Counted from the first letter of the stretch, positions 14,519 through 43,308 are shown. The stretch is 62,874 bases of DNA from a virus (IMGVR_UViG_3300044691_000465:1-62874), one strand, 5' to 3'. The notes: a model not told the origin generated them from the sequence alone. Translations and numbers: made by a program.

Positions 14519-14701
14519 CTCACCAACTCATGAAACTCACCCGGTTTTGGTTGCTAGGGAAAACAGCTCACCGGGAGGTATATTTCTCTTCTCTCTATTC
14601 TATTGAGTAAGTAGAGAGAGTAGAGGGATAGCCGAGAGTGCCTTGTAGCAGCAGGGAAATTCGCTGCTCAAACCTTCCCAACGCAATGAGTGCAGTGAGT
14701 C
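14519..14701. repeat. Conserved ~190-bp non-coding element, copy 1
   Basis: Shares GCTAGGGAAA, CTCACCGG, TTCTA.TGAGTAAGTAGAG and GAAAT-N4-TGCTCA.AC-N7-ACGCA.TGAGTGC..TGAGTC with 43123-43308. Confidence 0.85.
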
Positions 14702-14833
14702 AGCCGTTTTAGCGCATGGCTGGCGCTCTGCCTTTGGGCTTCCCATTGCGAAAACTATCCGCGATCCGTATCAGTTGAGCGACCTACGCGCGTGCGCGAA
14801 GGAACACAGCCAAAACTGACAGGACGCTTTCCC

Positions 14834-15424
14834 ATGGACGAGGAACAACCCGAAGCTGAGAAAGGCTTCAAAGGCGCGCGCTTGACTAAGCTTGAAGCGA
14901 TGGGACGCAAGCGAGCGGACCAAGGCAACTGGCGCAAGAAGCTGCAGGCTTCCAAACTCAAATTCGACGACGTGCAGAAGCAGGTGTACCTAAAACACCT
15001 CGCCCAATTCGGCCGCAAGCAGCATGCGTGCAAAGCCGCTGGCGTTTGTTTCGAGACGGTTGCCAAGCACATCGAGAACGATGCCGAGTTTGCCAGCGCC
15101 AGAGAAGCAGCGATGCAGGACTATGCCGACGCGGTGCAACAGCTTGCCTATCGCCTAATGAACGGCACGAAGAAACCAATCATCGGCGTGGACAAAGGCA
15201 CAAGCTTCATTATCGGCCACGAGCTCGTGCATGCCACCAACCTGCTGGCGATGGAAATGAAAAAGACCAACCCGGCTTATAAGGAGCGCAGCGAAGTCGA
15301 CTTGAACGGCGGCACTGTTGGTGGTGTGCTGCTTGTTCCTGCTGGCATGAACGCCGAAGACTTCATCAAGGTTGAGCAAGAGCGCACGGGCCATATGGAA
15401 GAGCCGGGCGCAGATATCAAATGA
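14834..15424 (+). CDS. terS: Terminase small subunit
   Basis: Directly upstream of TerL; HTH (ACKAAGVCFETV), GVLLVP C-terminal strand. Confidence 0.75.
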   Translation: MDEEQPEAEKGFKGARLTKLEAMGRKRADQGNWRKKLQASKLKFDDVQKQVYLKHLAQFGRKQHACKAAGVCFETVAKHIENDAEFASAREAAMQDYADAVQQLAYRLMNGTKKPIIGVDKGTSFIIGHELVHATNLLAMEMKKTNPAYKERSEVDLNGGTVGGVLLVPAGMNAEDFIKVEQERTGHMEEPGADIK

Positions 15425-17004
15425 CCTACCAGCCAACGCCAGAAGAACAAGCCGAGTTTGACAAGCGCCTTGTTGAGGCCGAAGCCATCGAGGCAAAGAC
15501 GCCGAACAAGCGCTATGTTATGCGCAACGGCAAGCTGGAGCTGCTGATTTGGGAAGCGCAAAAGGGAAGCCAGTGGGCGTTCTTAAACAGCGATGAATTC
15601 TTTGAAGCGCTGTATCACGGTACACGTGGCCCTGGCAAGACCGATGCCTTGCTCATGGCCTTTGCCAAGCACGTTGGCAAAGGCTACGGCGCCTCATGGC
15701 GTGGTGTCATCTTCCGGCAAACCTACCCGCAGCTCGCCGACGTCGTTGCCAAAAGCGAAAAGTGGTTTCGCCAGCTGTTCCCGCGTGCCAAGTTCAACAA
15801 GTCCAAAATGATGTGGACGTGGCCGACAGGCGAAGCGCTTTTGTTTCGCCACATGAACAACGTTGCGGACTATTGGAATTATCACGGCCACGAATATCCG
15901 TTTATTGGCTGGGAAGAGTTGACCAATTGGGCAACGGACGACTGCTACAAGATCATGATGAGCTGTTGCCGGAGCTCCACGGCCGGTATTCCGCGCATGT
16001 ATCGTGGCACAACCAATCCCTACGGTGTCGGCCACAATTGGGTGAAGGACCGTTTTCGCTTGGGCGGTAAGTGGTGGCAAACAACCGTTATAGCAGATGC
16101 GAAGGACATTGCAGGCAGACCGGAGCCGCGTCGCATCGCATTCTATGGCTTCATCGACGAAAACAAAATTCTGATGGATGCTGACAAGGATTACAAGACC
16201 ACAATCATAGCATCCGCTGCCAACCCTGCCATGGCAAAGGCTTGGCTGTATGGCAGCTGGAACATCGTGGCAGGCGGGATGTTCGGTGACATTTGGTCGC
16301 CAACGCATCACATCCTCAAACCGTTCAAGATACCGCTGACTTGGCGGATGGATCGCAGCTTCGACTGGGGCAGCTCCAAACCGTTTAGCGTCGGCTGGTG
16401 GGCGACAAGCGACGGCTGCGATTACATGGATGGGGACGGCAAGATACGCAGCTCGGTCAAGGGCGACCTGTTCCGCTTTCGCGAGTGGTACGGTTCCACT
16501 GGCAAGCCGAATGAAGGATTGAAGATGCTCGCAACTGAGATCGCGCAAGGCATAGTTGAGCGAGAAGTCTTGTGGGGCTTGTATGGCCGTGTCAAGGCTG
16601 GCGTTGCCGATAGCTCCATCTTCACAACTGAGAACGGAAACTGCATTGCCGACGACATGGAGCGCAAGGTGCGGCTTGACGACGGCAAGGAATACCGTGG
16701 TGTCAGTTGGGAACGAGCGGACAAGCGCCCAGGCTCTCGCAAGATGGGTTGGGAGCAGATGCGCAAGGCGCTCAAGGACGCACTGCCGAACAAGGATGGC
16801 CGACCACGCGAACAGCCCGGCTTGTTTGTGTTCGACGTTTGCACTAATTTCCTTCGCACCGTTCCTTCGCTGCCACGGGATGAGAAGGACATGGACGACG
16901 TTGACACGGATGCTGAAGACCACATCGGCGACGATGTGCGCTATCGCGTACGAGACATGAGCAACTCTGGCGTAAGTCAAAGCCGCACGATTGGGACTTA
17001 CTGA
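15421..17004 (+). CDS. terL: Terminase large subunit
   Basis: Walker A GTRGPGKT, Walker B IGWEEL, TTNP, nuclease FDWG and EDHIGDD. Confidence 0.95.
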   Translation: MTYQPTPEEQAEFDKRLVEAEAIEAKTPNKRYVMRNGKLELLIWEAQKGSQWAFLNSDEFFEALYHGTRGPGKTDALLMAFAKHVGKGYGASWRGVIFRQTYPQLADVVAKSEKWFRQLFPRAKFNKSKMMWTWPTGEALLFRHMNNVADYWNYHGHEYPFIGWEELTNWATDDCYKIMMSCCRSSTAGIPRMYRGTTNPYGVGHNWVKDRFRLGGKWWQTTVIADAKDIAGRPEPRRIAFYGFIDENKILMDADKDYKTTIIASAANPAMAKAWLYGSWNIVAGGMFGDIWSPTHHILKPFKIPLTWRMDRSFDWGSSKPFSVGWWATSDGCDYMDGDGKIRSSVKGDLFRFREWYGSTGKPNEGLKMLATEIAQGIVEREVLWGLYGRVKAGVADSSIFTTENGNCIADDMERKVRLDDGKEYRGVSWERADKRPGSRKMGWEQMRKALKDALPNKDGRPREQPGLFVFDVCTNFLRTVPSLPRDEKDMDDVDTDAEDHIGDDVRYRVRDMSNSGVSQSRTIGTY

Positions 17005-17018
17005 GAAGGACGACCGCA

Positions 17019-18671
17019 ATGGCGATTATTAGCCAACATCCGCTCTACAAGACGATGCTCCCGGATTGGGAAACGATGCGCGACACCTACGCAGGCGATC
17101 GCGCCGTGAAGGAGCGCGGCCAGAAATACCTGGCACCGACGAGCGGCATGGTGGCAGACGGCATGGCGCCGACGATGGCCGGTTTCGCTGCGTACAACGC
17201 CTATCGCTCCCGCGCCATCTTCCACGACTACGTTCGGGAAGGCGTCGAATATTACATCGGCTTGATGCACCAGGAACCGCCGGACATTCAGCTGCCAGCT
17301 GCGCTCGAACCGATGCGCAAGAACGCCACCATCAATCACGAAAGTCTCGAGCAGCTTTTGCGCCGCATCAACGAGCAGCAGCTTGTTGCTGGGCGCTTCG
17401 GCATGATGCTCGACATTCCTGCGCAACCCGAACAAGGGCATGAAATGCCCTACATCGCCACCTACAACGCGGAAAGCATCATCAACTGGGACGTTGGCAC
17501 GCGCGCGCAGATCGATTTGCCGGAGCTGAACCTCGTTGTGCTAAACGAGAGCACGTTCAAGCGCACGCTGCAAGGCTTCGAGTGGGAATGGATACAGCAA
17601 TTCCGTGTCCTGTCACTGATGCCGGTTGGTCCGGAAAAGGAAAGCGGCCCATACGCACAGGCCTTGTTCGCTGGCATGGAAGCGCAGTTCGATCCCAACC
17701 AGTTGGTGCAGCCGAACATTCGCGGCCGCACGTTGGAGCACATCCCGTTCGTGTTCGTGAACGCCACCGACACCTTGCCGACGACCGACGTGTGCCCGCT
17801 GATGGGCCTCGCCAAGCTGGCGCTCACCATCTATCGAGGTGAAGCGGACTATCGGCAGAACCTATTCATGCAAGGCCAGGACACCTTGGTTGTCATCGGC
17901 GGCAAGCAGGATGAAACGTATCGCCTGGGCGCAGGCTCGACCATCAACCTCAACGCTGTCCCTGGCGCCGACGCCAAGTATGCTGGTGTCACTGCAACCG
18001 GCCTCGCCGAGCAGCGGCAAGCACTCGAGAACGACATGACGCAGGCTCGCAACAAGGCAGGCCAGCTCATCGACACGCGTGGCGCCCAAAAGGAAAGCGG
18101 CGAGGCGCTGGAGGCACGCGTGTCTGCGCAGACCGCCAACCTCAACACGATTGCCGCTACCGGCGCCCGTGCGCTTGAGCAGCTGTTGAAGGCAGCAGCC
18201 GAATGGATGGGCGCCGATCCGGAGCAAGTCATTGTTACGCCGAACAAGGAATTTGCCGAGCAGCCGTTCGTTGCTGCGGACCTTGTGTCGCTGATGACCG
18301 CCAAGTCGCTTGGTGCACCGCTTGCGTTGGAGACGATCCACGACATCATGGTCGATCGCGGCTTGACCGAGCTGGAGTTTGATGCCGAGATGGCGAAGAT
18401 TGCCGACGAGGCGCCGGTTATGGGCACTGGTACGACTGCTGGTGGTGATCCCGTGACCAACCCGAAGGAAGGCAAGCCGATGATCGATCCCAAGACCGGG
18501 AAACAGATCACGCAACCCGGTGGCACTGCCGAACATCCGGATGCAGTCGCGTCGCGCACGGCAAGCCTCGCTGCGGCCGGTGCAGCAGGCAAAGGCGTTC
18601 CAGGTGCCAAGCCTGCAGGTCTCGCTTCACGTCCGCAGGGTGCAACGAAGTCCGCCGCGCCAGGGAAATAA
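17019..18671 (+). CDS. Portal protein (DUF4055-like)
   Basis: Follows TerL; HP.Y..W start, YNAYRSRA, IPFVF, PLMGLAKLAL..YR.EADY, ESGEAL. Confidence 0.88.
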   Translation: MAIISQHPLYKTMLPDWETMRDTYAGDRAVKERGQKYLAPTSGMVADGMAPTMAGFAAYNAYRSRAIFHDYVREGVEYYIGLMHQEPPDIQLPAALEPMRKNATINHESLEQLLRRINEQQLVAGRFGMMLDIPAQPEQGHEMPYIATYNAESIINWDVGTRAQIDLPELNLVVLNESTFKRTLQGFEWEWIQQFRVLSLMPVGPEKESGPYAQALFAGMEAQFDPNQLVQPNIRGRTLEHIPFVFVNATDTLPTTDVCPLMGLAKLALTIYRGEADYRQNLFMQGQDTLVVIGGKQDETYRLGAGSTINLNAVPGADAKYAGVTATGLAEQRQALENDMTQARNKAGQLIDTRGAQKESGEALEARVSAQTANLNTIAATGARALEQLLKAAAEWMGADPEQVIVTPNKEFAEQPFVAADLVSLMTAKSLGAPLALETIHDIMVDRGLTELEFDAEMAKIADEAPVMGTGTTAGGDPVTNPKEGKPMIDPKTGKQITQPGGTAEHPDAVASRTASLAAAGAAGKGVPGAKPAGLASRPQGATKSAAPGK

Positions 18672-18673
18672 CG

Positions 18674-18763
18674 ATGGCTAAGCTCACAGGCTATTTGGTG
18701 ATTGTGTTCAGTGGCGCGCTGTTCCTTCTTTGGGCAGCAGCCATTTGCACAGGGGTAATCTAA
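18674..18763 (+). CDS. 29-aa hydrophobic peptide
   Basis: MAKLTGYLVIVFSGALFLLWAAAICTGVI fills the gap between portal and the next ORF. Confidence 0.35.
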   Translation: MAKLTGYLVIVFSGALFLLWAAAICTGVI

Positions 18764-18764
18764 A

Positions 18765-19061
18765 ATGAAAACGCACGAGCTCGCTTTCTCGAAACCGGAC
18801 GGCGACAATCCGCGCATCTTCGCAACCGTGCGTGGTGGCACTGTCACGGTGGTTATTCGTGGCAGCGCCGATGCCATGTGCGAAATGTCATTGCACGATT
18901 GGTACACGTTCATCGAGCAGTCGCGCAAGAAGGTGCTGATGCAAGGCGACGTGCCCGTGGACGAGAAGCTGCGTGACTTCTCGCAAATCAAAGCACCAGT
19001 CGCGCCTCCCAAAGAAAACATTCCATATGGTGGCCATGGTATCGACGGGATGGGATACTAA
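18765..19061 (+). CDS. Hypothetical protein
   Basis: TAATG overlap with MuF. Confidence 0.55.
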   Translation: MKTHELAFSKPDGDNPRIFATVRGGTVTVVIRGSADAMCEMSLHDWYTFIEQSRKKVLMQGDVPVDEKLRDFSQIKAPVAPPKENIPYGGHGIDGMGY

Positions 19062-20263
19062 TGCCCGACACCACAACCAACGTCGCGTTGCGGGATGCGA
19101 TGGTTCGCCATCAAATCCAACTGCAACGCTTTGCCAAAGGCGTAACGAAAAAGATCCACGACGTGTTGAATAAGTCGGAGCAGGACATTGCGCAGATGAT
19201 CCGCGACCGGCTTGCTGCTGCAGTAGGCCTCGACACGGTGGCAGACGTTCGTCGCTTGCAGACCGTGCTTTCCATGCTGGAGAACCTGCGCACAACGACG
19301 TGGGACACACTGGACGCCACCTGGAACGAGCAGCTCATCGCGCTCGCAACCACAGAGCCGGGCTTCCTGGCAAACCAGCTGGACACCACAAGCCCGGTTG
19401 TGTTGGACATGGCGATGCCCGCGTTGGCGCAGCTGAAGTCGATCGTTACGAGCTCGCCCTTCGAAGGCCAGACGCTAAAGGACTGGTCTGCCTCGCTTGC
19501 GGCCGATGACATCCGCCGAATGGAAGCGCAAATCCGTCTTGGCATGGTGGCAGGTGAAGACAGCGCCACCATTGCGCGCCGCATTGTTGGCAGCGCCAAG
19601 CTGCTCGGCAAAGATGGTGCCACCCAAATCACCCGTGACAAGGCAGCAGCGATAACGCGGACAGCGGTGAATTTCATTGCCAACCAAGCGCGCCGCGCCT
19701 TCATCCTGGACAACCAAGAAATCTTCCAGCAGGAAATGTTCGTTGCAACGCTGGACGACCGCACCACCATGTTGTGTGCCAGCCTGGACGGCGATCTGTT
19801 CGACGTCGGCAAAGGTCCAGTCCCGCCGCTGCATTGGAATTGTCGAAGCACGCGAGTGCCCGTGCTCGAAGGCAACGTGGTGGGGCAGCGACCGTTCAAG
19901 GCGAGCACCGAGAAGCAGATGCTGAAGGACTTCGCCAAGCAGCAGGGCATCAAGCCGGTTGCGAGCCGCGACAGCCTGCCACGCGGCATGAAGGGCAAGT
20001 ACGATAAGTTTGCGCAGAAGGCGGTTCGTGATCAAACAGGGCAGGTGCCAGCCAACACCAGCTATCAACAGTGGCTTAGCACGCAGTCCGCCGCGTTCCA
20101 GGACGATGTGCTTGGGCAAACGAAGGGGCAGCTTTTCAGAAATGGCGGTCTCACACTTAAAAAGTTTGTTGCGGTCGACGGTTCTGAGCTATCACTATCG
20201 GACCTTGCGACCAAACAGGCCTCCGCGTTCCGCGCTGCCGGCCTTGACCCTGGGAACTTTTGA
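19061..20263 (+). CDS. Head morphogenesis protein (MuF / SPP1 gp7 family)
   Basis: ITRTAVN, FVATLDDRTT..C..LDG and PPLHWNCRS. Confidence 0.9.
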   Translation: MPDTTTNVALRDAMVRHQIQLQRFAKGVTKKIHDVLNKSEQDIAQMIRDRLAAAVGLDTVADVRRLQTVLSMLENLRTTTWDTLDATWNEQLIALATTEPGFLANQLDTTSPVVLDMAMPALAQLKSIVTSSPFEGQTLKDWSASLAADDIRRMEAQIRLGMVAGEDSATIARRIVGSAKLLGKDGATQITRDKAAAITRTAVNFIANQARRAFILDNQEIFQQEMFVATLDDRTTMLCASLDGDLFDVGKGPVPPLHWNCRSTRVPVLEGNVVGQRPFKASTEKQMLKDFAKQQGIKPVASRDSLPRGMKGKYDKFAQKAVRDQTGQVPANTSYQQWLSTQSAAFQDDVLGQTKGQLFRNGGLTLKKFVAVDGSELSLSDLATKQASAFRAAGLDPGNF

Positions 20264-20265
20264 TC

Positions 20266-20616
20266 ATGGCGAGCGGCAACCCATATCACGACGCGAAGGG
20301 CCTGTTTGCCTCCGGTGATGGTGGCGGCGGATCGCCTTCCGGCGACCGACACGCGTTGCAGATCAAGGCGCAGCTGCAGTCGGACAAGGCCAAGAGCCTT
20401 GGACGGCAGATGACCGCCAAGGCGCAGCTGCTGCTCTCACGCGGCAAGCCACAGAGCTACAGCTCGGCCGGGCGCCAGGGAAAAGCCGTGAGCGGCACCA
20501 ACTCGCTTGGCCGTATGCGCGACGCCTACGCAGCGGCCAAGGGCAGAGGACCAGACACAGGCGAGAGCTCGCTGGCGCGCATGGCCCGTGACTACGCGGC
20601 GAGCAAGCGCTGGTAA
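20266..20616 (+). CDS. Small basic protein with N-terminal NPYHDAKGLF motif (paralog 1)
   Basis: MASGNPYHDAKGLFASG then Gly linker and Lys/Arg/Ala-rich helices. Confidence 0.7.
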   Translation: MASGNPYHDAKGLFASGDGGGGSPSGDRHALQIKAQLQSDKAKSLGRQMTAKAQLLLSRGKPQSYSSAGRQGKAVSGTNSLGRMRDAYAAAKGRGPDTGESSLARMARDYAASKRW

Positions 20617-20632
20617 TAGGGGAGATAAGATC

Positions 20633-20971: not shown

Positions 20972-20973
20972 TC

Positions 20974-22130: not shown

Positions 22131-22200
22131 CTCCTTTTCTGATACATGAGACATAGCGCAGTCCTGAGAAGGCGCAAGGCCTTCCCAGAATTGTGGTTAA
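22131..22200 (-). promoter_or_regulatory. TTAACC half-site, -35 TTGCGC, -10 TATGTC and RBS
   Basis: TTAA is 19 bp from the -35; the -35 sits in the loop of an inverted repeat (22164-22188). Confidence 0.65.
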
Positions 22201-22435: not shown

Positions 22436-22516
22436 CTCCTTTTCTATGACAACCAGGATACCGCAACCTTGAGAAGCCGCAAGGGCTTCTCAAGATAATG
22501 GTTAATGGCCGGTTAA
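22436..22516 (-). promoter_or_regulatory. Full CtrA-type box TTAA-N7-TTAAC (22502-22516), -35 TTGCGG, -10 TATCCT and RBS
   Basis: Perfect box, 19 bp from the -35; 11-bp inverted repeat 22468-22494 surrounds the -35. Confidence 0.72.
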
Positions 22517-22781: not shown

Positions 22782-22864
22782 CTCCTTTTCTGATGCATGA
22801 GACGATGGCGCAGTTCGTACGGCATCGCAATCACCCTTGCCAGACGTGGTTAAAGCGGGGTAAA
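22782..22864 (-). promoter_or_regulatory. CtrA-like box TTTA-N7-TTAACC (22850-22864), -35 TTGCGA, -10 CATCGT and RBS
   Basis: 19 bp from the -35; divergent from the scaffold gene. Confidence 0.65.
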
Positions 22865-26952: not shown

Positions 26953-27337
26953 TTATGTCCATGCTGCAGCGACTGCCTTGCGGCTGATCAAAAAGAACGG
27001 CAAGCCCATTACCCTCGTGAAGCTGGCGACAACCGCCAGCGATCCGACGAAGCCTTGGCGTGGACCTGTAGATCAGCGTTCGCCTCCTGCTGCTTCGCTG
27101 AATTTGTTCGGTGCAGAAATCTCTTTCAGCAAGCGCCAACTCGGTGTGGCGTTTACAAAGAAGTCCATTCCCGACACAGTAACAGGATATTTCTTCGTCG
27201 CTGTTCCTCCGGGCACCCAGGACCTGACCAAGTTTGATGAGCTGACTTCCGATGGCGTTGTCTACAAGATCGAGGTGGCAGACGTGCTGCGCCCAGGTAC
27301 CGTGGACGTTCTTTACCTGTTCGGAATATCGAAATGA
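26945..27337 (+). CDS. Head closure / head-tail joining protein
   Basis: Position; A.RLIKKNG..ITL, DP.KPW. Confidence 0.65.
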   Translation: MVDYVHAAATALRLIKKNGKPITLVKLATTASDPTKPWRGPVDQRSPPAASLNLFGAEISFSKRQLGVAFTKKSIPDTVTGYFFVAVPPGTQDLTKFDELTSDGVVYKIEVADVLRPGTVDVLYLFGISK

Positions 27338-30827: not shown

Positions 30828-33415
30828 GCGACTCAGTTGACATTATCGTCTCAGAGACCGGCGCGGATGATGCAGCAGCTAGCCTTGCTGCTGTCAGCGC
30901 AGCAGCTGACCAAGCTGCCACTTCGGTAGACACCGCAAACCAATCCATCAACTTTCTGAAGGACGCCACCGCGAGTGCACAATCGCCTCTGGACGCGCTA
31001 GCGTCCGCTGCAGACCAAGGCACGACCGCGTTCGACAGCAACTACAAGATGGTGTACAACGCCGAGACTGGCTTCTACGATATCGTCACTGCGGCCCAGG
31101 AAGCTGCGGCCGCAATCCAACTCGCTGCAGAGGCAGCGGACGCTTCTGGCAATGCCTCCGTCAAGGCGGCCGACGCGCTTGGCGAACACAAGACGAGCCT
31201 GGACCACCACGCAGAGGCCACCCACGCGGCCAAGGAGCAGACCGAAGCTCTCACCGAAGCAACCAACCTTCTCAAGGAAGCGCTTGGCTTCTTGGGACTG
31301 GCTTTGGGTGTCGAGAAGGTCATTGACATGGCCGAAAAGTTCGAGCAGCTGACAATCAAGCTGAGCGGTGTTTCCAAGAACTCAAAAGAGCTCGAAGAGA
31401 ACTTGAAAGCGCTGGAGGACATTTCGCAGAAGACAGGTTCGTCCCTGACTGCAAACGCCAACGCTTTCCAGAAGCTTGCGATCGAAACCAAGGGCGCTGG
31501 TATTTCGCAGAAGGACTTGCTCACGACCATTGAAGGCGTCGATCAGGCTGTGCGCTTGTCTGGTGGCACTTCGGATCAGGCCGCGCAAGCGCTCAACGTC
31601 TTCTCCCGTGCGCTGGCGACAGGCTCGGTGCAAGGTCGACAATTCCGCACGCTGCTCATTCAGTTCCCCGCACTCGGCAAGATGATTGCAGATGGCTTGG
31701 GCGAGCCACTCAGCGCGCTCACGTCGTTTAGCGCCAAGGCGCCGTTGGCCTCCAAGGACTTCATCGAGGCCTTCGTGAAGGCCTCGGATAGCGCTCGGAA
31801 AGCCGGTGGCGAGATTGAGCTCACGCTTGGGCAAGCGCTGACCACGCTCGGCAACGCGGTGATGATCTACATCGGCCAGACCAACGAGAGCACTGGAGCC
31901 ACCGCGAAGCTAGCCGCGATCGTTCATTTCCTTGCAGAGAATTTCCAGACCATTGCCACGGTGGTAACCATCGCTGCAACCGCCTACGGCACGTACCTCG
32001 CCATCCTTGTTGTCATCCCTGGCGTGATCAACACGATCATTGCAGCCACCAACCGGCTGACCGTTGCTGTTGCTGCCAACCCCTTGGGCTTCCTGGCGGT
32101 CGCCATCGTGTCGCTGATCGCGATCACCTACGAATATGGCAACTCGGTAAAGCTAACCAGCGATGGCAGCATCACGCTGCTTGGTGCAGTGATCGGCCTT
32201 TGGAATTTGCTGAAGGAGGCAATGATCAAAATCTGGGAATACGTTGGTGGCCCGCTCACTGCCGTCTTCATGTTCTTCTTCAACAACGTTATCCTGGCGC
32301 CTTTCCACCTCGTGATCACCGTGATCAACGACATTATCTGGGCGCTTAATAAGATCGGAGCAGCCATCCCGCCGCTCAGCGATAGCATTGTCTCGTTCAA
32401 AGAACATATCGTTGACGCGATGAAAGAGGCCACCACCAAGCTGAACGAGACCGAAGAGCACTCCAAGACCCTGGCAGAGACCTTGGGTGGCGACGATGAA
32501 ACGCACAACGTCTCTGGAGCAGCGAAGAAGGCAACTACTTCGGTGAAGGGCCTCTCCAGCGCAGCCAACGACCTGGGTGTCCAGATGGGGCGCGTAGACG
32601 CTTCGCTCATCCCGGCTGGCAATGGGCTGATCAAGGCGGCAGAAGCTGCCAAGAAGGCTGCAGACGAATGGAAGAAATACTCTGCCGAAGTGGACGCGAA
32701 CACCAAGGCTGTGCAGGCCAACGCGCTGATGACACAAGACGCGATGGGCAACATGATAAAGGCCACCGACGAGTGGGCGCGTCGCTCTGGCGACGACTAC
32801 AACGGCATTGCAAGCAAGGCCAGCGCCGCGACAACTGCCGTGCAGGGGCTGCAGGCCGCGCAGAGTGCGGCCTCTGCTGCTTCGGCGGCAACGACCGGCG
32901 CAAGGTCGGTCGGCGGCGATGGTACGCAGAGCACCAACGCGATGTTGGAAGGCGGCAAGAGCACCGACGGTGGAGCGCACTTCCAACTGCCTGGGCAGAG
33001 CCTCCACAACTACCAGCTCTACGGCTACCCGCTTGGCGATGTTACCAGCGCCTCCGCATGGAACGACCTTCTTACAGAGACGGCTGACGCCGCGCTGCAA
33101 GCGAAGATCAGAGGCGACGCGCACACCCGGCATATCCCAGGTTTTGCGACCGGCGGATCGTTCCTTGTTGGTGGCAGCGGCGGTCTCGACAGCCAGCTCG
33201 TTACGTTCATGGCTTCTCCGGATGAGCGCGTTACCGTGCAGACGCCAGAGCAACAGCGTCGCGGCATTACATCCGGTGATGGTTCGTCCGCCAGCGGTGG
33301 CGGCACGCAGCGTCCGATCTTCATGACAATCAACACGCCGGATGCCAACAGCTTCCGACGCTCCACCAGCCAAATTCTCCTTGAGCTGCGGTCCAAACTT
33401 AATCAGGTAGGCTGA
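30824..33415 (+). CDS. Tape measure protein
   Basis: Ala-rich helical, ALATGSVQG..F tape-measure domain, TM stretches, FATGGSF.VGG and TPDANSFRRS..QI C-terminus. Confidence 0.9.
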   Translation: MSDSVDIIVSETGADDAAASLAAVSAAADQAATSVDTANQSINFLKDATASAQSPLDALASAADQGTTAFDSNYKMVYNAETGFYDIVTAAQEAAAAIQLAAEAADASGNASVKAADALGEHKTSLDHHAEATHAAKEQTEALTEATNLLKEALGFLGLALGVEKVIDMAEKFEQLTIKLSGVSKNSKELEENLKALEDISQKTGSSLTANANAFQKLAIETKGAGISQKDLLTTIEGVDQAVRLSGGTSDQAAQALNVFSRALATGSVQGRQFRTLLIQFPALGKMIADGLGEPLSALTSFSAKAPLASKDFIEAFVKASDSARKAGGEIELTLGQALTTLGNAVMIYIGQTNESTGATAKLAAIVHFLAENFQTIATVVTIAATAYGTYLAILVVIPGVINTIIAATNRLTVAVAANPLGFLAVAIVSLIAITYEYGNSVKLTSDGSITLLGAVIGLWNLLKEAMIKIWEYVGGPLTAVFMFFFNNVILAPFHLVITVINDIIWALNKIGAAIPPLSDSIVSFKEHIVDAMKEATTKLNETEEHSKTLAETLGGDDETHNVSGAAKKATTSVKGLSSAANDLGVQMGRVDASLIPAGNGLIKAAEAAKKAADEWKKYSAEVDANTKAVQANALMTQDAMGNMIKATDEWARRSGDDYNGIASKASAATTAVQGLQAAQSAASAASAATTGARSVGGDGTQSTNAMLEGGKSTDGGAHFQLPGQSLHNYQLYGYPLGDVTSASAWNDLLTETADAALQAKIRGDAHTRHIPGFATGGSFLVGGSGGLDSQLVTFMASPDERVTVQTPEQQRRGITSGDGSSASGGGTQRPIFMTINTPDANSFRRSTSQILLELRSKLNQVG

Positions 33416-34007: not shown

Positions 34008-34855
34008 AGTCTGCAAGCCCAGAGCTAATTGCGTCTATCAGCGCAGAAGCCACCACGCTGTGTCGGCTGTGGCGTGTCACGCGTAGGGATGGTACCGTGT
34101 TCCGGTTCACCGACGCGGTGCGCAATGTCACGTTCGGCGGCAACGTGTATCGCGCCGACGTGTCGTTCACGTCCTCCGCGATCTTCACCACCACGGTGGT
34201 TGCCAACCTGCAGAGCGTTACCCTCGCCATCATCATGGACGACACCGCGTTCGCCGAAGGCGACCTGCGCAAGCGGCTGTACGATAGCGCCATCGCTCAA
34301 ATCTCCGTGTGCGATTACACGCATCCGGAGTACGGCGAGCTCTTGCTGTTCTCCGGCAAGTTTGGCATCGTCCAGCTCTCCAACATTCAGACCGCTTCGA
34401 TCACGATCATTCCGGACAGCGGTGCAGCCACTGGCAAAGTCATCGGCAACGAGTGCTTCCAACAGACCTGCCGTGCCAACCTTGGCGACGTGCGCTGCAC
34501 CGTGAACATCGATCCGCTCAAGGTGGCGTTCACCGTGATCAGCGCGACAGGCGGCAGCTTCGTTGCGGCCGCGTTGAACCAACCATCGGCGCACTGGACG
34601 CTCGGCAAGATCAAGTGGCTGACCGGCCACAACGCTGGCACCGACAGCTTGATCAGCTCTGGGGATCAGGCCTCCACAAGCATCTTCCTCGCCGCGCCTC
34701 CGTTCTATCCGATCGCGCCAGGAGACACGGGCTACGCCTATCCCGGTTGCGACAAGCAGGCCATCACCTGCAGCAGCAAGTTCAATAACATCTTGAACAT
34801 GCGAGCAGAGCCGTTCATACCAGACGGCACACCCTCTGCAACCGGCCTAAGGTGA
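34004..34855 (+). CDS. Baseplate hub protein (DUF2163/BR0599, GTA-like)
   Basis: W.VTRRDG..F.FTD, CRA.LGD.RC, GCDK...TC..KF.N..N.R.EPFIP. Confidence 0.9.
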   Translation: MKSASPELIASISAEATTLCRLWRVTRRDGTVFRFTDAVRNVTFGGNVYRADVSFTSSAIFTTTVVANLQSVTLAIIMDDTAFAEGDLRKRLYDSAIAQISVCDYTHPEYGELLLFSGKFGIVQLSNIQTASITIIPDSGAATGKVIGNECFQQTCRANLGDVRCTVNIDPLKVAFTVISATGGSFVAAALNQPSAHWTLGKIKWLTGHNAGTDSLISSGDQASTSIFLAAPPFYPIAPGDTGYAYPGCDKQAITCSSKFNNILNMRAEPFIPDGTPSATGLR

Positions 34856-37800: not shown

Positions 37801-38923
37801 CACGGTTCGGCTGAACGAGGTGACTTACAACGCCGACTTCACCATGTCGATCAACGGTACCAACTACAGCTTCCGAGACGACGTGGTGCTCACGCACGCC
37901 ATTCCGCCGCAAGTAACGGACCACACCATTCACGGTCCAGGCGATGGCGTGCCTGTGGTGATCGACGGTCCAGTTCTAAACCCTGCGGCAGGCTCCACAG
38001 CTGGCATCTTCGCGCTGCTCGATGGTGTCGCCTCCTACGGACAGGCCGGTTGGGAAGCTGCCTCTTTGGGCTTTGAGCTCCCAGGTTCGACCTACATGGC
38101 AGAGCTGTTCCAGGTTGTTGCCCAAGTGAAGGGCGGACAGCTGGTGAGCGCACTGCCGGACACCGCAACGCCGTGGCTCACGGATTACGACACGACCATG
38201 CGCCTCGTGCTGAAGTCGGCCACCTCTGCAGACTTCGTCAATGCGCCGGACTATCTTAGTTTCTCGACTGGCGTGAACATGCTGATCGTTGGTGCACCTG
38301 GACGGTGGGAGTACATCCTATTCCGCAACGTGAACGTGCTGTCTGCCAAGGTTGTAGAGCTCACCGGCCTCGTGCGTGGCTTGCGCGGTACCGAAGTGAA
38401 CACCGGCAACCACGTTGCTGGCGACCAAGCCTATCTGGTCTCGAGCGCTGCCACTGGCTTCGAGGCACCGCTCCGGCAGCAGTCCCTCCCGAAGGCAGAG
38501 ATCGGCGCCACCGCAAGGTATCAGGCCATTGGCATCCCCGCTTCACGGACGCCCTCGCAGATCAATGTAACGTTCCAGGGCTACACGCTCTACCCCTTCG
38601 CGCCTTGTCATCCCAAAGCCGTGTTGGCTGGTGGGAACGACATCAACCTGACGTGGGTACGACGCGACCGTCTCGGCACGGACTTTGTCACTACTAACCT
38701 TGCGCTCAGCGAGACGGCTGAAAAGTACGACCTTGTGATCTATAGTGGCGGGACAATCGTTCGCACGCTTGTCGACCTGACCGCGCCAGCCTACACCTAC
38801 ACTGCTGCGCAGCAGACCGCCGACGGGTTTACTGTCCCGCTTGCATCGCTTAAAATCGCGCTCTTCCAAAAGGGCGAGCTCGGACGAGGCTTCGAGAAAC
38901 TGGAGACGTTGAATGTCCAATAA
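34859..38923 (+). CDS. Large tail tip / host-specificity protein (GTA megatron-like)
   Basis: YG.PIP...G, IRRVW.DG, PAFRG..Y.V, LEPSD.V, L.RG.RGTE, W.RRDR. Confidence 0.85.
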   Translation: MSSLVAPLQTPLTGPSMLFVPVQTVNYASAYGTPIPLSQGLRKVTGTPIWQGPVGSKVVSNNLDGSQTVGSNPSALSTTTTLFRSFAVSLGYQLETDGSQPPPKIRRVWIDGTLVFANGSATQPVFYNIATGQYNPTIGQVPIPAGLPPVTSDGAFPPPAPDGFLGNLTYTFYDGSETQLPDWEIQADKGAIAPAFRGMMYLVVRGLPVGQGTMLFQYTSQFGFSSDLVGSQAPAITSTRLPVIQVELMDGTSLPSFATEMTPLPGSLPFGVGVVVLSDFRKRLLCTNTGAHLHTFDMDAKVEIDYKPITGIAGIVDNNGFGDPGKFNSWDLVNDVIYGQGFPGATIAAVNRATGAGANGPYTHSFDLAALDSMGANAIPSGTDAVVFPRFWYGDVEHAIINGANQPVVFGITQVGYVAALTPSNDGMTWPAAIPNKAMLDFTARSPNSICAMPLRELALQKGHNDFQDTAFLIGSGQFIYLALVTVRPGPKAAIVSATQIYDSGDPTLHASAFLDANGAIVVTDTSVSIGLEKVSLLPVVYDFAPNYSLAPGWNGIFPHVQPAAYKDLPLNVAWNGGEPNVYVNSDFSRGNFAYLGGMINLADGAFTFTDLGALGGGTGEAWDSGSQTMFFRGAGVDGERLLWARLSNAITGTVGSLASYLTFFAERGGYTVDKINIDNTIKDQVVGALITAPTDLSTLFDQIAAVYGLIWFDSGGVLKFVKQNRSPIKATNTLTISANPVDGATVTIGTFVYRFKNVMSAPFDVQIEPTKESTIANLAATVNGSGTAGISFFAGTVSPHTSVNAAMASNTAMTVTALLGGAAGNLIGTTSTSGALVFATTTLLGGNPPPEPVVELTSDDMSFIASSTLGTGDVLVTTFPAPISQGVAVAVTYYNLDADYAMGTQQYTPDQGTGLAPVVTTVTTYNLPFTMANAEAYDRVTKVALRTLDSQVIQELQLTQKHMQLEPSDVVGITINNFAYTVRLNEVTYNADFTMSINGTNYSFRDDVVLTHAIPPQVTDHTIHGPGDGVPVVIDGPVLNPAAGSTAGIFALLDGVASYGQAGWEAASLGFELPGSTYMAELFQVVAQVKGGQLVSALPDTATPWLTDYDTTMRLVLKSATSADFVNAPDYLSFSTGVNMLIVGAPGRWEYILFRNVNVLSAKVVELTGLVRGLRGTEVNTGNHVAGDQAYLVSSAATGFEAPLRQQSLPKAEIGATARYQAIGIPASRTPSQINVTFQGYTLYPFAPCHPKAVLAGGNDINLTWVRRDRLGTDFVTTNLALSETAEKYDLVIYSGGTIVRTLVDLTAPAYTYTAAQQTADGFTVPLASLKIALFQKGELGRGFEKLETLNVQ

Positions 38924-39986
38924 CCTGACACTAACGCAGGTCGCGACCAACCAGACCAATCCCGAAGTTCCCGTCAATGACAAAGGCGGTGAGCTCGACG
39001 CTGCATTGACAGAGACTTCAACGCTGGACCTGACCAACAGCCTCACCTGTCCGACGCTAACATACCAGCGCGCGATCCGGCTGCTCATCACGCCGACTGG
39101 CGTGGCGAAGACGCTGACGCTGCCTGCGGTGAAGCGGCTGCTCGTGCTGCAGAACGCGGGCACCAACGCTGTTACCATCGCGGTTGGCACCACCAATTTC
39201 CTGCTGGCAGCTGCAGCGCAGACCTTCGTCTACACCGACGGCACGACCAATGGCCTGCAGCAGCTCTCGCTCGGTGGCGGAGGTGGTGGCGGATCGACCG
39301 CGCAACCCTGCGACATTGCAACCTTCATTCCCGGCAAGCCCGTTGGAGCCGCGACCGTGTTCCGCTTCAACGTGTTGCGCGCCTTCACGTGGCCGATCGC
39401 GCTGGCGGGATCAGTGTTCAACGCAGCGGTCGCTGCAACTGGAACTTCGGTGTTCACCATTCTCCAGAATGGATCGTCCATCGGTACCCTCTCGTTCGCT
39501 GCAGCTGGCACAGTGCCAACCATTACCTTCACCTCAGCGGTGACGTTTGCAGCGAACGACGTCATCAGCATCACTGCCCCAGCCGTCCAGGACGCCACGC
39601 TGGCGGACATAGCCTTCGACTTCCTGGGCTCACGACCAATCGGCACGACGCTGCAGCCCTTCGACATAGGCGTCTTCATTGCCGGCAAGCCGGGCGCTGC
39701 TGCCACAGTGTTGCGCCTCAACGTGGTGCGCGAGTTTGTCTGGAAAGCCAGCCTCACCGGCTCCGTGTGCAACGCTGGCGTCGCCTCCGCTGCTTCCAAG
39801 GTTTTCACGATCAAGAACAATGGTTCGTCGATCGGCACGGTAACGTTCAGCACGAGCTCAACAGGAACGATCGCCTTCGCAGCGGACGTGTTCTTTGCGG
39901 TAGGCGACGTGCTGACCATTGAGGCTCCAGCCGTGCAGGACACGACCCTGGCGGACGTTGCCCTCAACTTCCTCGGGAGCCGCTGA
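38913..39986 (+). CDS. Tail fibre/adaptor protein with DUF2793-like N-terminus and a duplicated C-terminal domain
   Basis: NL.L..V...Q.NPEV.VN; two repeats DI..FI.GKP...APAVQD.TLAD.A..FLGSR. Confidence 0.7.
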   Translation: MSNNLTLTQVATNQTNPEVPVNDKGGELDAALTETSTLDLTNSLTCPTLTYQRAIRLLITPTGVAKTLTLPAVKRLLVLQNAGTNAVTIAVGTTNFLLAAAAQTFVYTDGTTNGLQQLSLGGGGGGGSTAQPCDIATFIPGKPVGAATVFRFNVLRAFTWPIALAGSVFNAAVAATGTSVFTILQNGSSIGTLSFAAAGTVPTITFTSAVTFAANDVISITAPAVQDATLADIAFDFLGSRPIGTTLQPFDIGVFIAGKPGAAATVLRLNVVREFVWKASLTGSVCNAGVASAASKVFTIKNNGSSIGTVTFSTSSTGTIAFAADVFFAVGDVLTIEAPAVQDTTLADVALNFLGSR

Positions 39987-39987
39987 T

Positions 39988-40767
39988 ATGTCTGCATCTA
40001 TCGAGAATGCCCTAAGCGGGTTTTATGATGGTGGAAGCGCGTCGCCCGGAGCCACCATCACTACAGGTGGTGCAAACCGGCTTGTCGTAATTATGTGTGT
40101 CACGGGTCGTGATAATACTTCAGCGGATATCAATCAGGTCACCGCTATAGCAGCAAGCGGCCTTACGTTCACTCGCATCTTTCACGATGTTTCGTTCACC
40201 TACTCGGACACGGCTGGAGACCCTAGCTTTCCAGACGCGTCCATCTCGGTCGACGTCTTCACAGCGCCAGCACCAACGACACTGACAGCTCTCGCCTGGA
40301 CAGCTACGATGGCGGGCGACGGCTTCGTCAACCACGGGACTTGGTCGCAGTTCAGCGTCGTTGGCCTCCCAGACCTCAGCAACCCGTTCGATCCGAACGT
40401 GCTCGTCCCTGTCACTGCGAAGAACGTCTCCGGCACCTCATCAGCAGCGGCGGTCCCTGGAGTGACTACCACCAACTCCAACGACCTGCTTGTTGGCCTG
40501 TTCGTGAACCACGACTTCAACGCGGCGGTTACACCAAGTCCCGCTGCAGGGTGGACAACCATCGTTGGCCCCAGGCAGGATAACGGTGGGGCAAGTGGCC
40601 ACTGGCAGCTTCCGGTGTCCAAGAATTTTAGCGCGCCCCAGACTGGGCTCACTGTCCCGACAGGCTTCAGCGACGACTACTGGTATGGTGCAGTGTTCGC
40701 GTTCACGAGCGACTCAGGAGCAGCACCAAGTGGCACGCCAGAGCCTGTCATCATCATAATGCAATAA
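39988..40767 (+). CDS. Putative receptor-binding / tail accessory protein
   Basis: Ser/Thr/Gly-rich beta protein at the end of the tail module. Confidence 0.6.
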   Translation: MSASIENALSGFYDGGSASPGATITTGGANRLVVIMCVTGRDNTSADINQVTAIAASGLTFTRIFHDVSFTYSDTAGDPSFPDASISVDVFTAPAPTTLTALAWTATMAGDGFVNHGTWSQFSVVGLPDLSNPFDPNVLVPVTAKNVSGTSSAAAVPGVTTTNSNDLLVGLFVNHDFNAAVTPSPAAGWTTIVGPRQDNGGASGHWQLPVSKNFSAPQTGLTVPTGFSDDYWYGAVFAFTSDSGAAPSGTPEPVIIIMQ

Positions 40768-40777
40768 GGAACGACAA

Positions 40778-41797
40778 ATGCAAACGAGCGATAAAGGCCT
40801 GAACGTAATCAGAAGTTTCGAAGGGCGCGCGCTGCGTGCCTATCAGGACAGCGTTGGTGTGTGGACCATCGGCTACGGCAACACCAACTTCGACGCCAAC
40901 GCGGTGAAGGAGCTCGGCAAGATCGGCCGTGGCCTCACCATCACGGCGGACCAAGCGGAAACGCTGTTCGTCGAGAGCATCCGCCACGGCTATGAGCCTG
41001 CGGTCTCCAAGCGCCTTGCACCTTTGGGTGTGGCGCTCACGCAAGGGACCTACGACGCTGGCAGCTCGTTCCACTACAACTGCGGCGCGATCATGAAGGC
41101 CACATGGCCGACGGCTCTCATTCAAGGTGACAAGAGCCTTGCGCGTACGAGCATTCTATCATGGAACAAGGCCAAAGGCACCGTGCTGCCTGGGCTCACT
41201 CGCCGTCGGAAGCGCGAATGGTCAATGATTGATATCGGAGACTATGGTCCGGAAGGCGCCTCCGGTCCCGTCGACCTGGATACGCACAAGCAGCTCCCAG
41301 CGCCGCGACCGGCCGGAGCAGGCCCGCTCGTTCCCTTCCCAACGCCGGAGGCGACCAACAGCGCCGTCCCAGGGCAAGCTAAAACGGGTGACGTGAGCGA
41401 TCACGTGGCCGAAGTGAACGGCTACCTCGTGGCCCTTGGGCGCCTCAAGAAGATGCCGGAACCGAGCAGCCTGTTCACCAAGGAGACAGAAGACGCTGTT
41501 CTGAAATATCAGGGCGAGCACCCAAACCTGACGAAGGACGGCAAGGTTGGACCTGCTACAACGGCCTCGCTGCAACGCGACGTGAAGATGAGACAGACGA
41601 CCAAAAAGACGACAAAGGTCACCGCCATTGTCGCTTCTGCAGGAACCGCAGCAGCTGCAGCAGGATGGGCGACAATCAAGTTCGTGCTGATTGCTGCAGG
41701 AGTTGCAGGTTCCGCTGGCTTGATTTTCATTGTCCTCACGCACAAAACTGAGCTAGAAACTCTATGGAATGCCCTTCGTGGCAAACAGGTTCCATAG
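40778..41797 (+). CDS. Endolysin: GH24 lysozyme, peptidoglycan-binding domain and C-terminal hydrophobic segments
   Basis: FEG..L.AYQDSVGVWTIGYG, GLTRRR..E, AV..YQ...DGKVGP.T. Confidence 0.92.
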   Translation: MQTSDKGLNVIRSFEGRALRAYQDSVGVWTIGYGNTNFDANAVKELGKIGRGLTITADQAETLFVESIRHGYEPAVSKRLAPLGVALTQGTYDAGSSFHYNCGAIMKATWPTALIQGDKSLARTSILSWNKAKGTVLPGLTRRRKREWSMIDIGDYGPEGASGPVDLDTHKQLPAPRPAGAGPLVPFPTPEATNSAVPGQAKTGDVSDHVAEVNGYLVALGRLKKMPEPSSLFTKETEDAVLKYQGEHPNLTKDGKVGPATTASLQRDVKMRQTTKKTTKVTAIVASAGTAAAAAGWATIKFVLIAAGVAGSAGLIFIVLTHKTELETLWNALRGKQVP

Positions 41798-41806
41798 GAG
41801 GCTCTC

Positions 41807-41962
41807 ATGTCGTTTCTCGTTGCTGCTGCCGTTGCACTCGGCACGTTCCTCGCTGGCGTTATGTTCTCGGACAAGATCAAGGCATGGTTCACGACCAAGG
41901 CGCTTCCGGCCACCGTCCGCGAGCTGAAGGCTGAAGAGGCCAAGGTAGTGGCGAAGCTGTGA
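41807..41962 (+). CDS. Small single-TM lysis-cassette protein
   Basis: AGGAGG RBS; MSFLVAAAVALGTFLAGVMF. Confidence 0.6.
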   Translation: MSFLVAAAVALGTFLAGVMFSDKIKAWFTTKALPATVRELKAEEAKVVAKL

Positions 41963-42222
41963 TGTTCGCGCAGCTGCGCTTGCAAGAAAGATGCCACCAG
42001 TTCGCTGGTGGCATCAAGGCCGTGGCCGCATTGGCGGTTACTGTTGCGCTCTCCCTCGCCGACTTCTACGACGTTGTCCCGCTGCAGCCCGTGCTGACCG
42101 AGTTGCTCGGCGAGCACGCTGCTACCAAGCTTGCCCTTTATCTGCCGGTGATCTTTGCGATCTTGCGCTACGTGTCGACCACGGAAGTGCACTGGCACCA
42201 CCACGACGAGGAAGCGCACTGA
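41962..42222 (+). CDS. Two-TM membrane protein (holin/antiholin candidate)
   Basis: Two hydrophobic segments; TGATG coupling. Confidence 0.55.
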   Translation: MFAQLRLQERCHQFAGGIKAVAALAVTVALSLADFYDVVPLQPVLTELLGEHAATKLALYLPVIFAILRYVSTTEVHWHHHDEEAH

Positions 42223-42683
42223 TGTTTGGCTTTGCATTTATCATGAAGATCGTTGGCTGGTTCAGCGGAGTGAATATCTCTGGTCTGATCAACGGCATCA
42301 CTGACGTTATCAAGAACCGGCAGAACGCAGAGGTGGCTGATCACGCCTCCGACAACTCTAGCGGTGTCGCCCTCGGCACGGCCTACCTCCGATCGGTCGA
42401 CGCCACCAACAACATAAAGCTGGAGAGCAAACGGATCGAGGGCAAGTGGGGCCTGACGCTGATCACCACCATCATCTTCTTCACCATCCCGATCGGCATC
42501 CACTTCGCTGCGATCGTGTTCGACAGCATGACCTTCTGGCATCACCGCATCGGCGACTGGGACGTTGGCAGACTGCCAGTCCCCTACGACGCGCTCGAGA
42601 TTTCGATCATTCAATCGCTTTATTACATCGGTGGCGGAGTGGGCGCGGTGTCCATGCTGGCCAAGGCGTTCGGTAAACGCTAA
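42222..42683 (+). CDS. Multi-TM membrane protein (holin candidate)
   Basis: Hydrophobic N-terminus and two C-terminal TM segments. Confidence 0.55.
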   Translation: MFGFAFIMKIVGWFSGVNISGLINGITDVIKNRQNAEVADHASDNSSGVALGTAYLRSVDATNNIKLESKRIEGKWGLTLITTIIFFTIPIGIHFAAIVFDSMTFWHHRIGDWDVGRLPVPYDALEISIIQSLYYIGGGVGAVSMLAKAFGKR

Positions 42684-42697
42684 GTGAGGCAGGGGCA

Positions 42698-43048
42698 ATG
42701 GCGGATCATGATCAGGCGCAACAGGTACGCGAGAGTGTAGAGCACGTAGCGGAACGAGCGGCCGACGTCGCGGTCGCCCGCATGCTTACGCACCTGGGCA
42801 TTGATGCTGCCAACCCAATACAGTCCCAGGCCGAGTTCCAGAGCCTCCGAGCGCTGGCGAAGCTAATGGCCGACGAAGGCGTCGCCGCCGACCTAGCGTT
42901 CATCCGGCGCCTCCGCACAGCCTCCGACACCATTAAGGACGCGACGTGGCGCACCACCGTCCGAGTTCTTGTTACCGCCGCTTTGGGCATATTTGCCATT
43001 GGTACGAAGGACTGGTGGATCGCACACATTGGTGCGATGTTCCGCTGA
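42698..43048 (+). CDS. C-terminally anchored membrane protein of the lysis cassette
   Basis: LGID..NPI..Q, DLAFIRRLR and a C-terminal TM. Confidence 0.6.
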   Translation: MADHDQAQQVRESVEHVAERAADVAVARMLTHLGIDAANPIQSQAEFQSLRALAKLMADEGVAADLAFIRRLRTASDTIKDATWRTTVRVLVTAALGIFAIGTKDWWIAHIGAMFR

Positions 43049-43122
43049 GCTCACGCACTCACTGTGCCCAAACAACCAGAGCTGCAGAAAGCCCAAAGGG
43101 CAACAAGGGTTAGGGCGGTTTA

Positions 43123-43308
43123 ACTCACGCACTCGACTTCCTCACGCGCTTTCGGTCGCTAGGGAAATCGCCTCACCGGAGCTCCCTACTCTACTCTCTC
43201 TAATTCTAATGAGTAAGTAGAGTAAGTAGAGTAGCTAGGTTCCAACCCCTGCTCCCGCCAACGAAATCCCGTGCTCAGACGTTTTGCACGCAGTGAGTGC
43301 GTTGAGTC
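43123..43308. repeat. Conserved ~190-bp non-coding element, copy 2
   Basis: Colinear with 14519-14701; central CTACTCTACT/AGTAGAGTAG inverted repeat. Confidence 0.85.

Follow-up and report, generated by a model that had tools for sequence, protein, structure and literature searches.

Why should a phage genome carry two similar stretches of non-coding DNA, one directly before the gene for the terminase small subunit (terS) and the other before an SNF2 helicase gene? The question was raised by the virus record IMGVR_UViG_3300044691_000465, the whole of which (62,874 bp, rated 100% complete in IMG/VR) was analyzed and is called the window below. The first-pass annotation of this DNA had described the pair as homologous elements bracketing the virion and lysis genes and preferred to see replication origins in them. 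The results given here indicate that the two elements are likely to be DNA-level platforms for protein binding, as judged from sequence, and we tentatively take them to be an operator/enhancer-like control region for the heads of two gene blocks.

Copy A begins directly after the stop codon (14513-14515) of the open reading frame (ORF) at 14132-14515 and occupies most of a 276-bp gap before terS (ORF 14792-15424; match to the PHROG terminase small subunit, 4.6e-24). Copy B occupies a 296-bp gap flanked by ORF 42698-43048 and the SNF2 helicase gene, whose ATG is at 43366 (Pfam SNF2-rel_dom, 7e-16), so that the two lie in two large non-coding gaps preceding terS and SNF2. In a MAFFT alignment the copies had the same orientation with every named block in register, and a search of the window record gave 43141-43231 as the sole second match (78% identity, E 1.4e-13), bearing out the block-by-block homology described at first. 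By self-blastn the copies were 78.5% identical over 93 nt (E 3.8e-8). A repeat-family search (D7) paired 14519-14574 with 43124-43179, 28,605 bp further on, in agreement with the separation of ~28.6 kb first reported, the other arc being 34,269 bp. The parts of both copies were as follows, L numbers being loci and G numbers genomes of the comparison set.

14516-14710, no strand assigned: copy A, intergenic from ORF 14132-14515 to terS; homologues at the same position before terS in L007, L006 and L004 (nhmmer).
14519-14540, + strand: left-arm words of copy A, CTCACC, ACTCAT and ACTCAC, at 8-9 bp spacing.
14553-14574, + strand: GCTAGGGAAA box, 4-nt gap and word CTCACCGG of copy A; GCTAGG box kept in L007, L004, L006, L021/L080, L084 and L085.
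14581-14631, no strand assigned: A+T-rich centre of copy A, an imperfect palindrome of pyrimidine tract, TTCTATTGAGTAAGTAGAG core and purine tract.
14655-14670, + strand: GGGAAAT-N4-TGCTCA module of copy A, as on the left side; GGGAAAT-N4-5-CTCGAC in L010, L011 and L004.
14686-14701, - strand: right-arm inverted words ATGAGTG and GTGAGTC of copy A; the last word holds a GANTC site.
43048-43063, + strand: two further CTCAC words (43050, 43058), directly 3' of the stop of ORF 42698-43048.
43120-43315, no strand assigned: copy B, intergenic before the SNF2 helicase gene; homologues at the same position in L010, L011 and L012 (nhmmer).
43186-43238, no strand assigned: centre of copy B, A+T-rich and palindromic (CTACTCTACTCTCTCT ... 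GAGTAAGTAGAGTAAGTAGAGTAG), with folding energies of -23.6 (top strand) and -21.5 kcal/mol (opposite strand).
43292-43308, - strand: right-arm inverted words GTGAGTG and TTGAGTC of copy B.
43310-43317, + strand: GTGATTGC, SNF2-proximal motif found in the window, L010-L012, L062 and L076; its gene orientation is kept even where the element core is inverted.

In each element an A+T-rich GTAGAG/GTAAGT centre is flanked by words that follow one another at roughly one helical turn, as direct repeats in the left arm and as inverted ones in the right, and the halves of the centre (CTCTAC-type and GTAGAG/GTAAGT-type) are themselves inverted words. CTCA units spaced 8-9 bp apart at 14519, 14527 and 14536 in copy A and at 43124, 43132 (as CTCG) and 43141 in copy B oppose TGAGT units at 14687 and 14696 and at 43294 and 43303, and both copies end in GAGTC (14697, 43304), all as first annotated; the left-arm gap from GCTAGGGAAA to CTCACCGG, then given as 5 nt, is 4 nt by recount. 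In the window GCTAGGGAAA occurs at 14553 and 43158 and nowhere else, and GAGTAAGTAGAG only at 14605, 43211 and 43220. The centre of copy A can form a stem of 23 pairs, for which the folding energy is -24.0 kcal/mol when computed for the top strand and -14.7 for the opposite one. The elements were the top two 5-mer arrays of the window, if modestly so (p 2.5e-7 and 3.2e-7, against ~3e-6 for the next), and the rest of the window showed no avoidance of the 5-mer ACTCA (30 occurrences, Markov-corrected expectation 37.5).

Relatives were sought in a set of 21 whole genomes, namely the window, Pseudomonas phage YuA and 19 IMG/VR records. When a profile of the two copies was run with nhmmer over 75 loci and counted at E<0.01, eight loci matched: before terS in L007, L006 and L004, before SNF2 in L010, L011 and L012, and on the opposite strand in L062 and L076. 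Close relatives have CTCGAC/GTCGAG at 10-11 bp spacing in place of the CTCA/TGAG units and keep the GCTAGG box, the GTAGAG(T)AAGTAGAG core and the GGGAAAT-N4-5-word module. Because the eight-sequence alignment keeps these blocks (words, GCTAGG, GTAGAG, GGGAAAT-N4-word) while the spacers differ, the possibility raised at the outset that blocks diverge as fast as spacers does not hold. A crude core pattern was present before SNF2 in 21 of 68 SNF2 loci; the others that were read had a like architecture with quite different words. The architecture is thus constant and the word belongs to the phage: ACTCA(C) in the window, and CTCGAC, GTCTATCA, GACCTGA or GTGTACA elsewhere.

The pair was detected by self-blastn in all seven genomes first examined and in two of nine more distant ones (G018, G017), and an unbiased 7-mer array scan of 15 genomes added pairs in G015 (8 + 8 copies of GTGTACA), G014 (6 + 5 copies of CTGAGTC), G004 and G006. 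In total 13 of the 21 genomes carry the element in the same two places, and three more (G001, G005, G010) have the SNF2-side array alone. Five of the 21 (G012, G013, G016, G019, G020) showed no pair, three of these having unpaired arrays. Wherever terS was located, an element of the copy A type lay directly upstream of it. The TerL and SNF2 proteins of genomes sharing the architecture are 32-59% identical to those of the window. In an all-against-all blastn of 14 elements from seven genomes, the own-genome partner was the best match in 14 of 14 cases, even for the related G008 and G009; the words thus vary from phage to phage, whereas the two copies of any one genome keep their likeness.

Dense arrays of other words were also observed in two of the pairless genomes, at the ends of G019 (19-165, 533-613 and 59694-59818) and at 60209-60505 of G012, with AGTGCGC 11 times, CTCTTAC 9 times and CGGTATA 12 times. 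These may be the counterpart elements in those lineages.

The first-pass annotation knew of no described element of this kind. For the pair this stands as far as the searchable literature goes, which holds no description of a paired element or replication origin of the YuA/PhiJL001-like family (the original YuA (2008) and PhiJL001 (2005) papers lie outside this scope), but the YuA GenBank record (NC_010116) annotates promoter-trap sigma70 promoters inside both homologous regions, at 489-568 and 33014-33160. Word look-ups for intergenic repeats, origins or promoters in PMC11946847 and PMC3070671 drew a blank. Both regions, run by blastn against 50,697 phage records, gave no match, and neither did an exact-pattern scan of IMG/VR for the element core. 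G018 contains a stretch identical to PhiJL001 (AY576273.1), a record with no repeat annotation and with small ORFs called over the region. The pair looks like an undescribed variant of operator arrays or of iteron origins.

Does the element act as DNA or as RNA? In G008 and G009 the copy before SNF2 runs opposite to the genes and to the terS-side copy, with the orientation of GTGATTGC unchanged. Over 15 instances the central stem was about equally stable on both strands, with 0-4 G-U among 10-23 pairs per stem. The RNAalifold consensus of eight sequences reached -10.6 kcal/mol with an unfavourable covariation term of +1.36, the pairing being that of word with inverted word, and Rfam gave no match at gathering score. 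Furthermore, YuA, G007 and L024-type elements lack the pyrimidine arm and retain just the purine-rich GTAAGT core and simple repeats. The reuse of one word many times in the same orientation per genome fits a protein site over independent helices. An RNA would be suggested by folding energies, which were better than those of 200 shuffles for copy A (z -2.15, 3/200 as good) and copy B (z -5.22, 0/200), by the central stem being kept with differing sequences in the two copies, and by the annotated YuA promoters, which would transcribe the core as a long leader. Since one copy is inverted in two genomes, and there is neither strand bias nor RNA covariation, we consider the elements in all likelihood to be DNA-level protein-binding platforms.

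As for the function of such platforms, control of the block heads is favoured because one function explains both positions, and it is proposed here with some reserve. Each element would be a quasi-palindromic DNA platform of phage-specific words (ACTCA(C)/TGAGT in the window), and a phage-encoded sequence-specific DNA-binding protein would coat both platforms. Copy A heads the packaging, virion and lysis block and copy B the replication and nucleotide metabolism block; the bound protein would control the promoters heading these two co-directional blocks, timing or balancing their transcription, and the true promoter of each block would lie just downstream, outside the shared core. We infer protein binding, the identity of the binder and transcriptional control as the outcome. 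The tolerance of inversion fits an operator/enhancer-like module with promoters just downstream.

Transcription data from YuA and a further array in G002 point to such block-head control. Passages of a study of YuA by ONT-cappable-seq report a sigma70-like promoter consistent with the promoter-trap assay, and nine promoters with a phage-specific motif that had no in vivo activity without infection (PMC10914365). The 9-mer TACTTCTTC of this motif occurs 11 times in YuA: in five repeats annotated 'promoter requiring phage-encoded cofactor', at three further sites, and in the element arms at 444 (-), 716 (+) and 32984 (-); on the SNF2 side two copies in opposite orientation flank the core. Since 3 of the 11 sites lie in the arms, at least one YuA arm word is a site used at promoters. 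In G002 a third array of that phage's own word (34380-34515, 17 k-mer matches) lies between a tandem helix-turn-helix (HTH) gene and the primase-helicase start, flanking a TTGACA hexamer in an operator-like setting. It was found in G002 alone among seven genomes screened with element-derived 8-mers, weak clusters elsewhere being judged chance. The 'late-promoter platforms' that the first-pass annotation listed as an alternative are closer to this reading than the origin model it preferred.

A separate observation concerns five copies of a ~90-nt repeat (TTGAAATGGTCACAATTG...) at 27243, 29303, 37352, 40147 and 41127 of G002 (reoriented coordinates), each ending in a ribosome-binding site and start codon. 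The copies probably represent promoters or leaders of a phage-specific family that is separate from the paired element.

Known control regions resemble the pair in part. The YuA sigma70 promoters and phage-specific promoter box stand at homologous positions, before the SNF2 helicase gene gp02 and terS gp50; the GTAAGT-type core is shared, and the upstream box of the phage-specific promoters recurs unchanged as one of the arm words. The YuA record, however, annotates single promoters and not a paired repeated element, and the window differs in having neither a sigma70 consensus match nor dispersed word copies. In lambda (OL/OR) and in the Mu early operator, where a bend lies between site clusters, two regions likewise share sites for one phage-specific binder, the site sequence varies with the phage, and the sites are at the heads of transcription units. 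The phages studied here differ from these in being of virulent type with no known repressor function, in having more and shorter words, and in the palindromic A+T-rich centre.

Several results weigh against block-head control. A scan with the sigma70 consensus, which may not be that of the host, gave 0 sites in 14300-14950 and 42850-43500. One candidate string of another type was found.

14735-14749, + strand: TGGGCTTCCCATTGC, sigma54-type -24/-12-like candidate string between copy A and terS.

Strings similar to it at the same place in L079 (the terS-side locus of G002) and L004 fit GG-N10-GC, and that in L007 does not. No such string follows copy B. The TGG-N8-TTGC pattern showed no enrichment in the window, with 18 matches for 13.05 expected and at least as many in 12 of 100 shuffles, and no enhancer-binding ATPase was identified among the window proteins scanned, a subset of all. 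Outside the elements the window holds one k-mer match to the word and no cluster, so the YuA-type pattern of a word at many promoters is not seen there. An A+T-rich palindrome with 5-10 words arrayed around it is more what one expects of an origin than of an operator. Finally, no single regulator for the words emerged; two candidates were considered foremost, beside which some other protein may be the binder.

358-684, + strand: tandem XRE-type HTH protein of 108 amino acids, candidate binder; ends 3 nt before the primase-helicase start.
687-3086, + strand: primase-superfamily 3 (SF3) helicase with C-terminal winged helix (last ~130 residues), candidate initiator and word binder.

The tandem HTH protein, the counterpart of YuA gp25, matches Pfam HTH_31 (4.2e-9) and HTH_3 (2.1e-6) in two stretches. 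Its gene was detected by tblastn (E<=1e-3) in 13 of the 21 genomes; three of the 13 pair-bearing genomes (G004, G006, G015) do not have it and two of the five pairless ones (G012, G016) do, which tells further against the proposal. The phyletic link between HTH gene and pair was dropped as proof in view of those three pair-bearing genomes. The primase-helicase was present in 21 of 21 genomes, pair-bearing ones without the HTH gene included. Its Pfam matches to DUF5906 (1.1e-22) and VapE-like (3.1e-7) are solid; that to RepB_primase (22.4 bits) is below the curated cut-off of 24.3, which puts the earlier label of RepB-type primase on a sub-threshold match. The C-terminal 185 residues were modelled as a winged helix (predicted local distance difference test 80.6), with structural matches to the RFX DNA-binding domain (Z 6.5) and to the P4 origin-binding domain 1ka8 (Z 5.1, root-mean-square deviation 2.9 over 70 residues), all of Z <8 and thus, per the structure-comparison tool, possibly a mere common arrangement. 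Foldseek gave no match for this domain at E<=0.001, Pfam RFX matched the protein weakly (E 0.0062), and phmmer reached the VapE-like chain 7pds at just E 0.17.

Neither of two further comparisons linked a protein to the words. The C-terminal domains of G004 and G006, which have different words, are 34-35% identical to that of the window, against 33% for G003 with similar words. TerS, the fastest-diverging of the proteins compared, has its best match to the window protein in G002, whose word is unrelated. A 587-amino-acid protein (12403-14166) with an N-terminal Fis-type HTH (3.8e-5) and a match to PHROG 1745 'DNA transfer protein' (2.9e-166) is encoded just before copy A in the window, and its G002 homologue just before the SNF2-side element. 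It showed no sequence relative in the PDB and no homologue in YuA, and its adjoining the elements in these two genomes was treated as a coincidence of block ends.

The main alternative to block-head control, which we regard as somewhat unlikely, is a two-site iteron origin, in which the C-terminal winged helix of the primase-helicase would bind the words, assemble on both arms and melt the A+T-rich centre. There could be two origins, or an origin with a cis-acting partner, possibly aided by transcription from adjacent promoters. The iteron-like layout proposed at first is borne out, with words spaced 8-11 bp apart in direct and inverted arrays around an easily melted A+T-rich palindrome, and the element tolerates inversion. 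The initiator would be the primase-helicase, found in every genome even where the HTH gene is lacking and carrying a modelled winged helix with modest resemblance to RFX and P4 domains. The third array of G002 at the primase-helicase promoter recalls autoregulated initiators. The cumulative GC-skew minimum of the window (43.9 kb) adjoins copy B, but over seven genomes skew extremes do not coincide with the elements, the minimum falling within ~3 kb of the SNF2-side element in just three (G000, G003, G002); the origin signal expected from the earlier model is therefore not consistent. The low Z scores and the Foldseek result speak against an origin, the similarity of the C-terminal domain does not track that of the words, 5 of 21 genomes have an orthologous primase-helicase and no pair, and both window copies lie 13-20 kb from the initiator gene. 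Nor does an origin account for the copy always before terS or for the YuA arm word serving as a promoter box. The analogy first drawn with the single-strand initiation (ssi) sites of RSF1010, for which a RepB'-type primase and a conserved hairpin would be needed, is not supported on either count: the RepB_primase match is sub-threshold, and the hairpin arm is missing in YuA, G007 and L024-type relatives.

In its more specific form, as a split two-site origin for an SF3 primase-helicase in a large virulent-siphovirus family, analogous to ori/crr of phage P4, this alternative is doubtful. If it were true, the initiator would assemble head to head on the inverted arrays, melt the palindrome and bridge the two sites, and, the sites being block heads as well, the same DNA would tie replication to early transcription. 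P4 has two separate sites, ori and crr, with the same short iterons, the second of which tolerates either orientation, and its alpha protein combines primase, SF3 helicase and a C-terminal winged-helix DNA-binding domain. In contrast, the sites described here are ~28 kb apart and at operon heads, binding is predicted only, with an origin-binding domain match of Z 5.1, and the primase domain is of a different type, RepB-like (sub-threshold) in the window phage. Origins of staphylococcal pathogenicity islands (SaPIs) similarly have two sets of short iterons flanking an A+T-rich stretch and an initiator of a related helicase class; they are single and beside the rep gene, whereas the window has two sites far from the primase-helicase gene (the third array of G002 excepted).

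Packaging (pac) sites are a much weaker prospect and in our judgement improbable. TerS would bind the word arrays and the terminase would cut in the centre, with copy A as the main site and copy B as a second one. The invariable place of copy A directly upstream of terS and the fast divergence of TerS are in favour of this. The pac layouts of P1 and SPP1 also resemble the element in that words flank a central region. P1 pac, whose hexamers contain a methylation site, has its word sets beside terS as well; it differs in that the elements here come as two copies per genome and that relatives do not keep the GANTC sites in them. Headful packaging has been proposed for the YuA/PhiJL001-like family (PMC11946847), so that either orientation of a pac site could be tolerated. 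Against packaging, an equally conserved second copy stands before SNF2 in 13 genomes, at a distance of 28-34 kb, TerS similarity is out of step with the words (the best match, G002, having an unrelated word), and G002 has its third array at the primase-helicase gene. For the Ab18 group of YuA-like phages, a passage of PMC4482731 states that reads aligned as a circle with no abnormal peaks.

That the elements have no function of their own is highly improbable; they would then be either module-boundary sequence or remnants of an intergenic duplication that gene conversion has kept alike. Gene conversion alone would indeed make the copies of one genome resemble each other more than their orthologues, as they do, but the same architecture persists with different words where TerL and SNF2 are as little as 32-59% identical to those of the window, the blocks are conserved while the spacers diverge, and direct repeats 28 kb apart carry a deletion cost. 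Least probable of all, given the two-strand stability of a stem with few G-U pairs, the inverted copies, the missing pyrimidine arm and a covariation term that tells against the alternative of paralogous non-coding RNAs listed at first, is that the elements are two paralogous structured RNAs of the + strand, whether as a non-coding RNA or as a leader acting in cis (an antitermination element, for instance).

The family to which the pair belongs includes model and therapy-candidate phages, namely YuA-like Pseudomonas phages, PhiJL001 and Bordetella phages, for which neither the origin of replication nor the early-to-late switch is described in searchable texts. A co-evolving cis pair with phage-specific words offers a concrete target for both questions. 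In addition, two arrays of one word at terS and SNF2 form a simple genomic marker by which block boundaries might be annotated in metagenomic relatives.

The window itself is a member of this family. Its TerL is 58% identical to that of YuA and similar also to those of PaMx74 and Bordetella CN1-type phages, nearly all of its long ORFs are on the + strand, and the gene order is that of YuA (SNF2 helicase, Dda-like helicase, ribonucleotide reductase, PolA, primase-helicase, variable region, terS, virion genes). Since the DNA polymerase A gene is cut at the record ends (61074-62873 and 2-457), the record represents a circular or permuted genome opened inside a gene.

GANTC sites, which the first-pass annotation connected with CcrM methylation through the GAGTC at the end of both copies, are nearly eliminated from the window (10 against 231 expected from base composition), and two of the 10 lie in the last words of the two elements (p 0.0023). 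Among relatives the elements of G018, G007, G009, YuA and G004 contain one or two GANTC sites and those of G002 and G015 none; the site is thus not conserved in the element, and the CcrM idea would hold for no more than the window phage and a few others. GAATC/GATTC (0 against 55 expected) and GAGTC/GACTC (8 against 56) are the most depleted 5-mers of the window, and GANTC is depleted also in G002 (16 against 228) and G004 (29 against 190). CCGCGG, GCCGGC, ACCGGT, AGATCT and CCCGGG are strongly depleted in the window as well. This suggests that restriction-site avoidance is behind the depletion of these sites.

Within the window, a group of genes listed at 53036-53971, 57794-58690 and 58653-59729 includes those for an amino acid:DNA transferase (Pfam ADDT, 3.2e-22) and a 5-hydroxymethyldeoxyuridine (5-hmdU) DNA kinase (HMUDK_hel, 4.1e-40), together with a homologue of YuA gp17, for which the annotation is putative dUMP hydroxymethyltransferase. 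The phage DNA probably carries hypermodified thymidine. Finally, a repeat of 33-70 nt beginning CTCCTTTTCT was observed at 22131-22200, 22436-22505 and 22782-22814. Read on the opposite strand, this beginning is a ribosome-binding site with a start codon after it, and the repeat marks the starts of a few minus-strand genes at ~21.7-22.9 kb within the otherwise + strand virion block.

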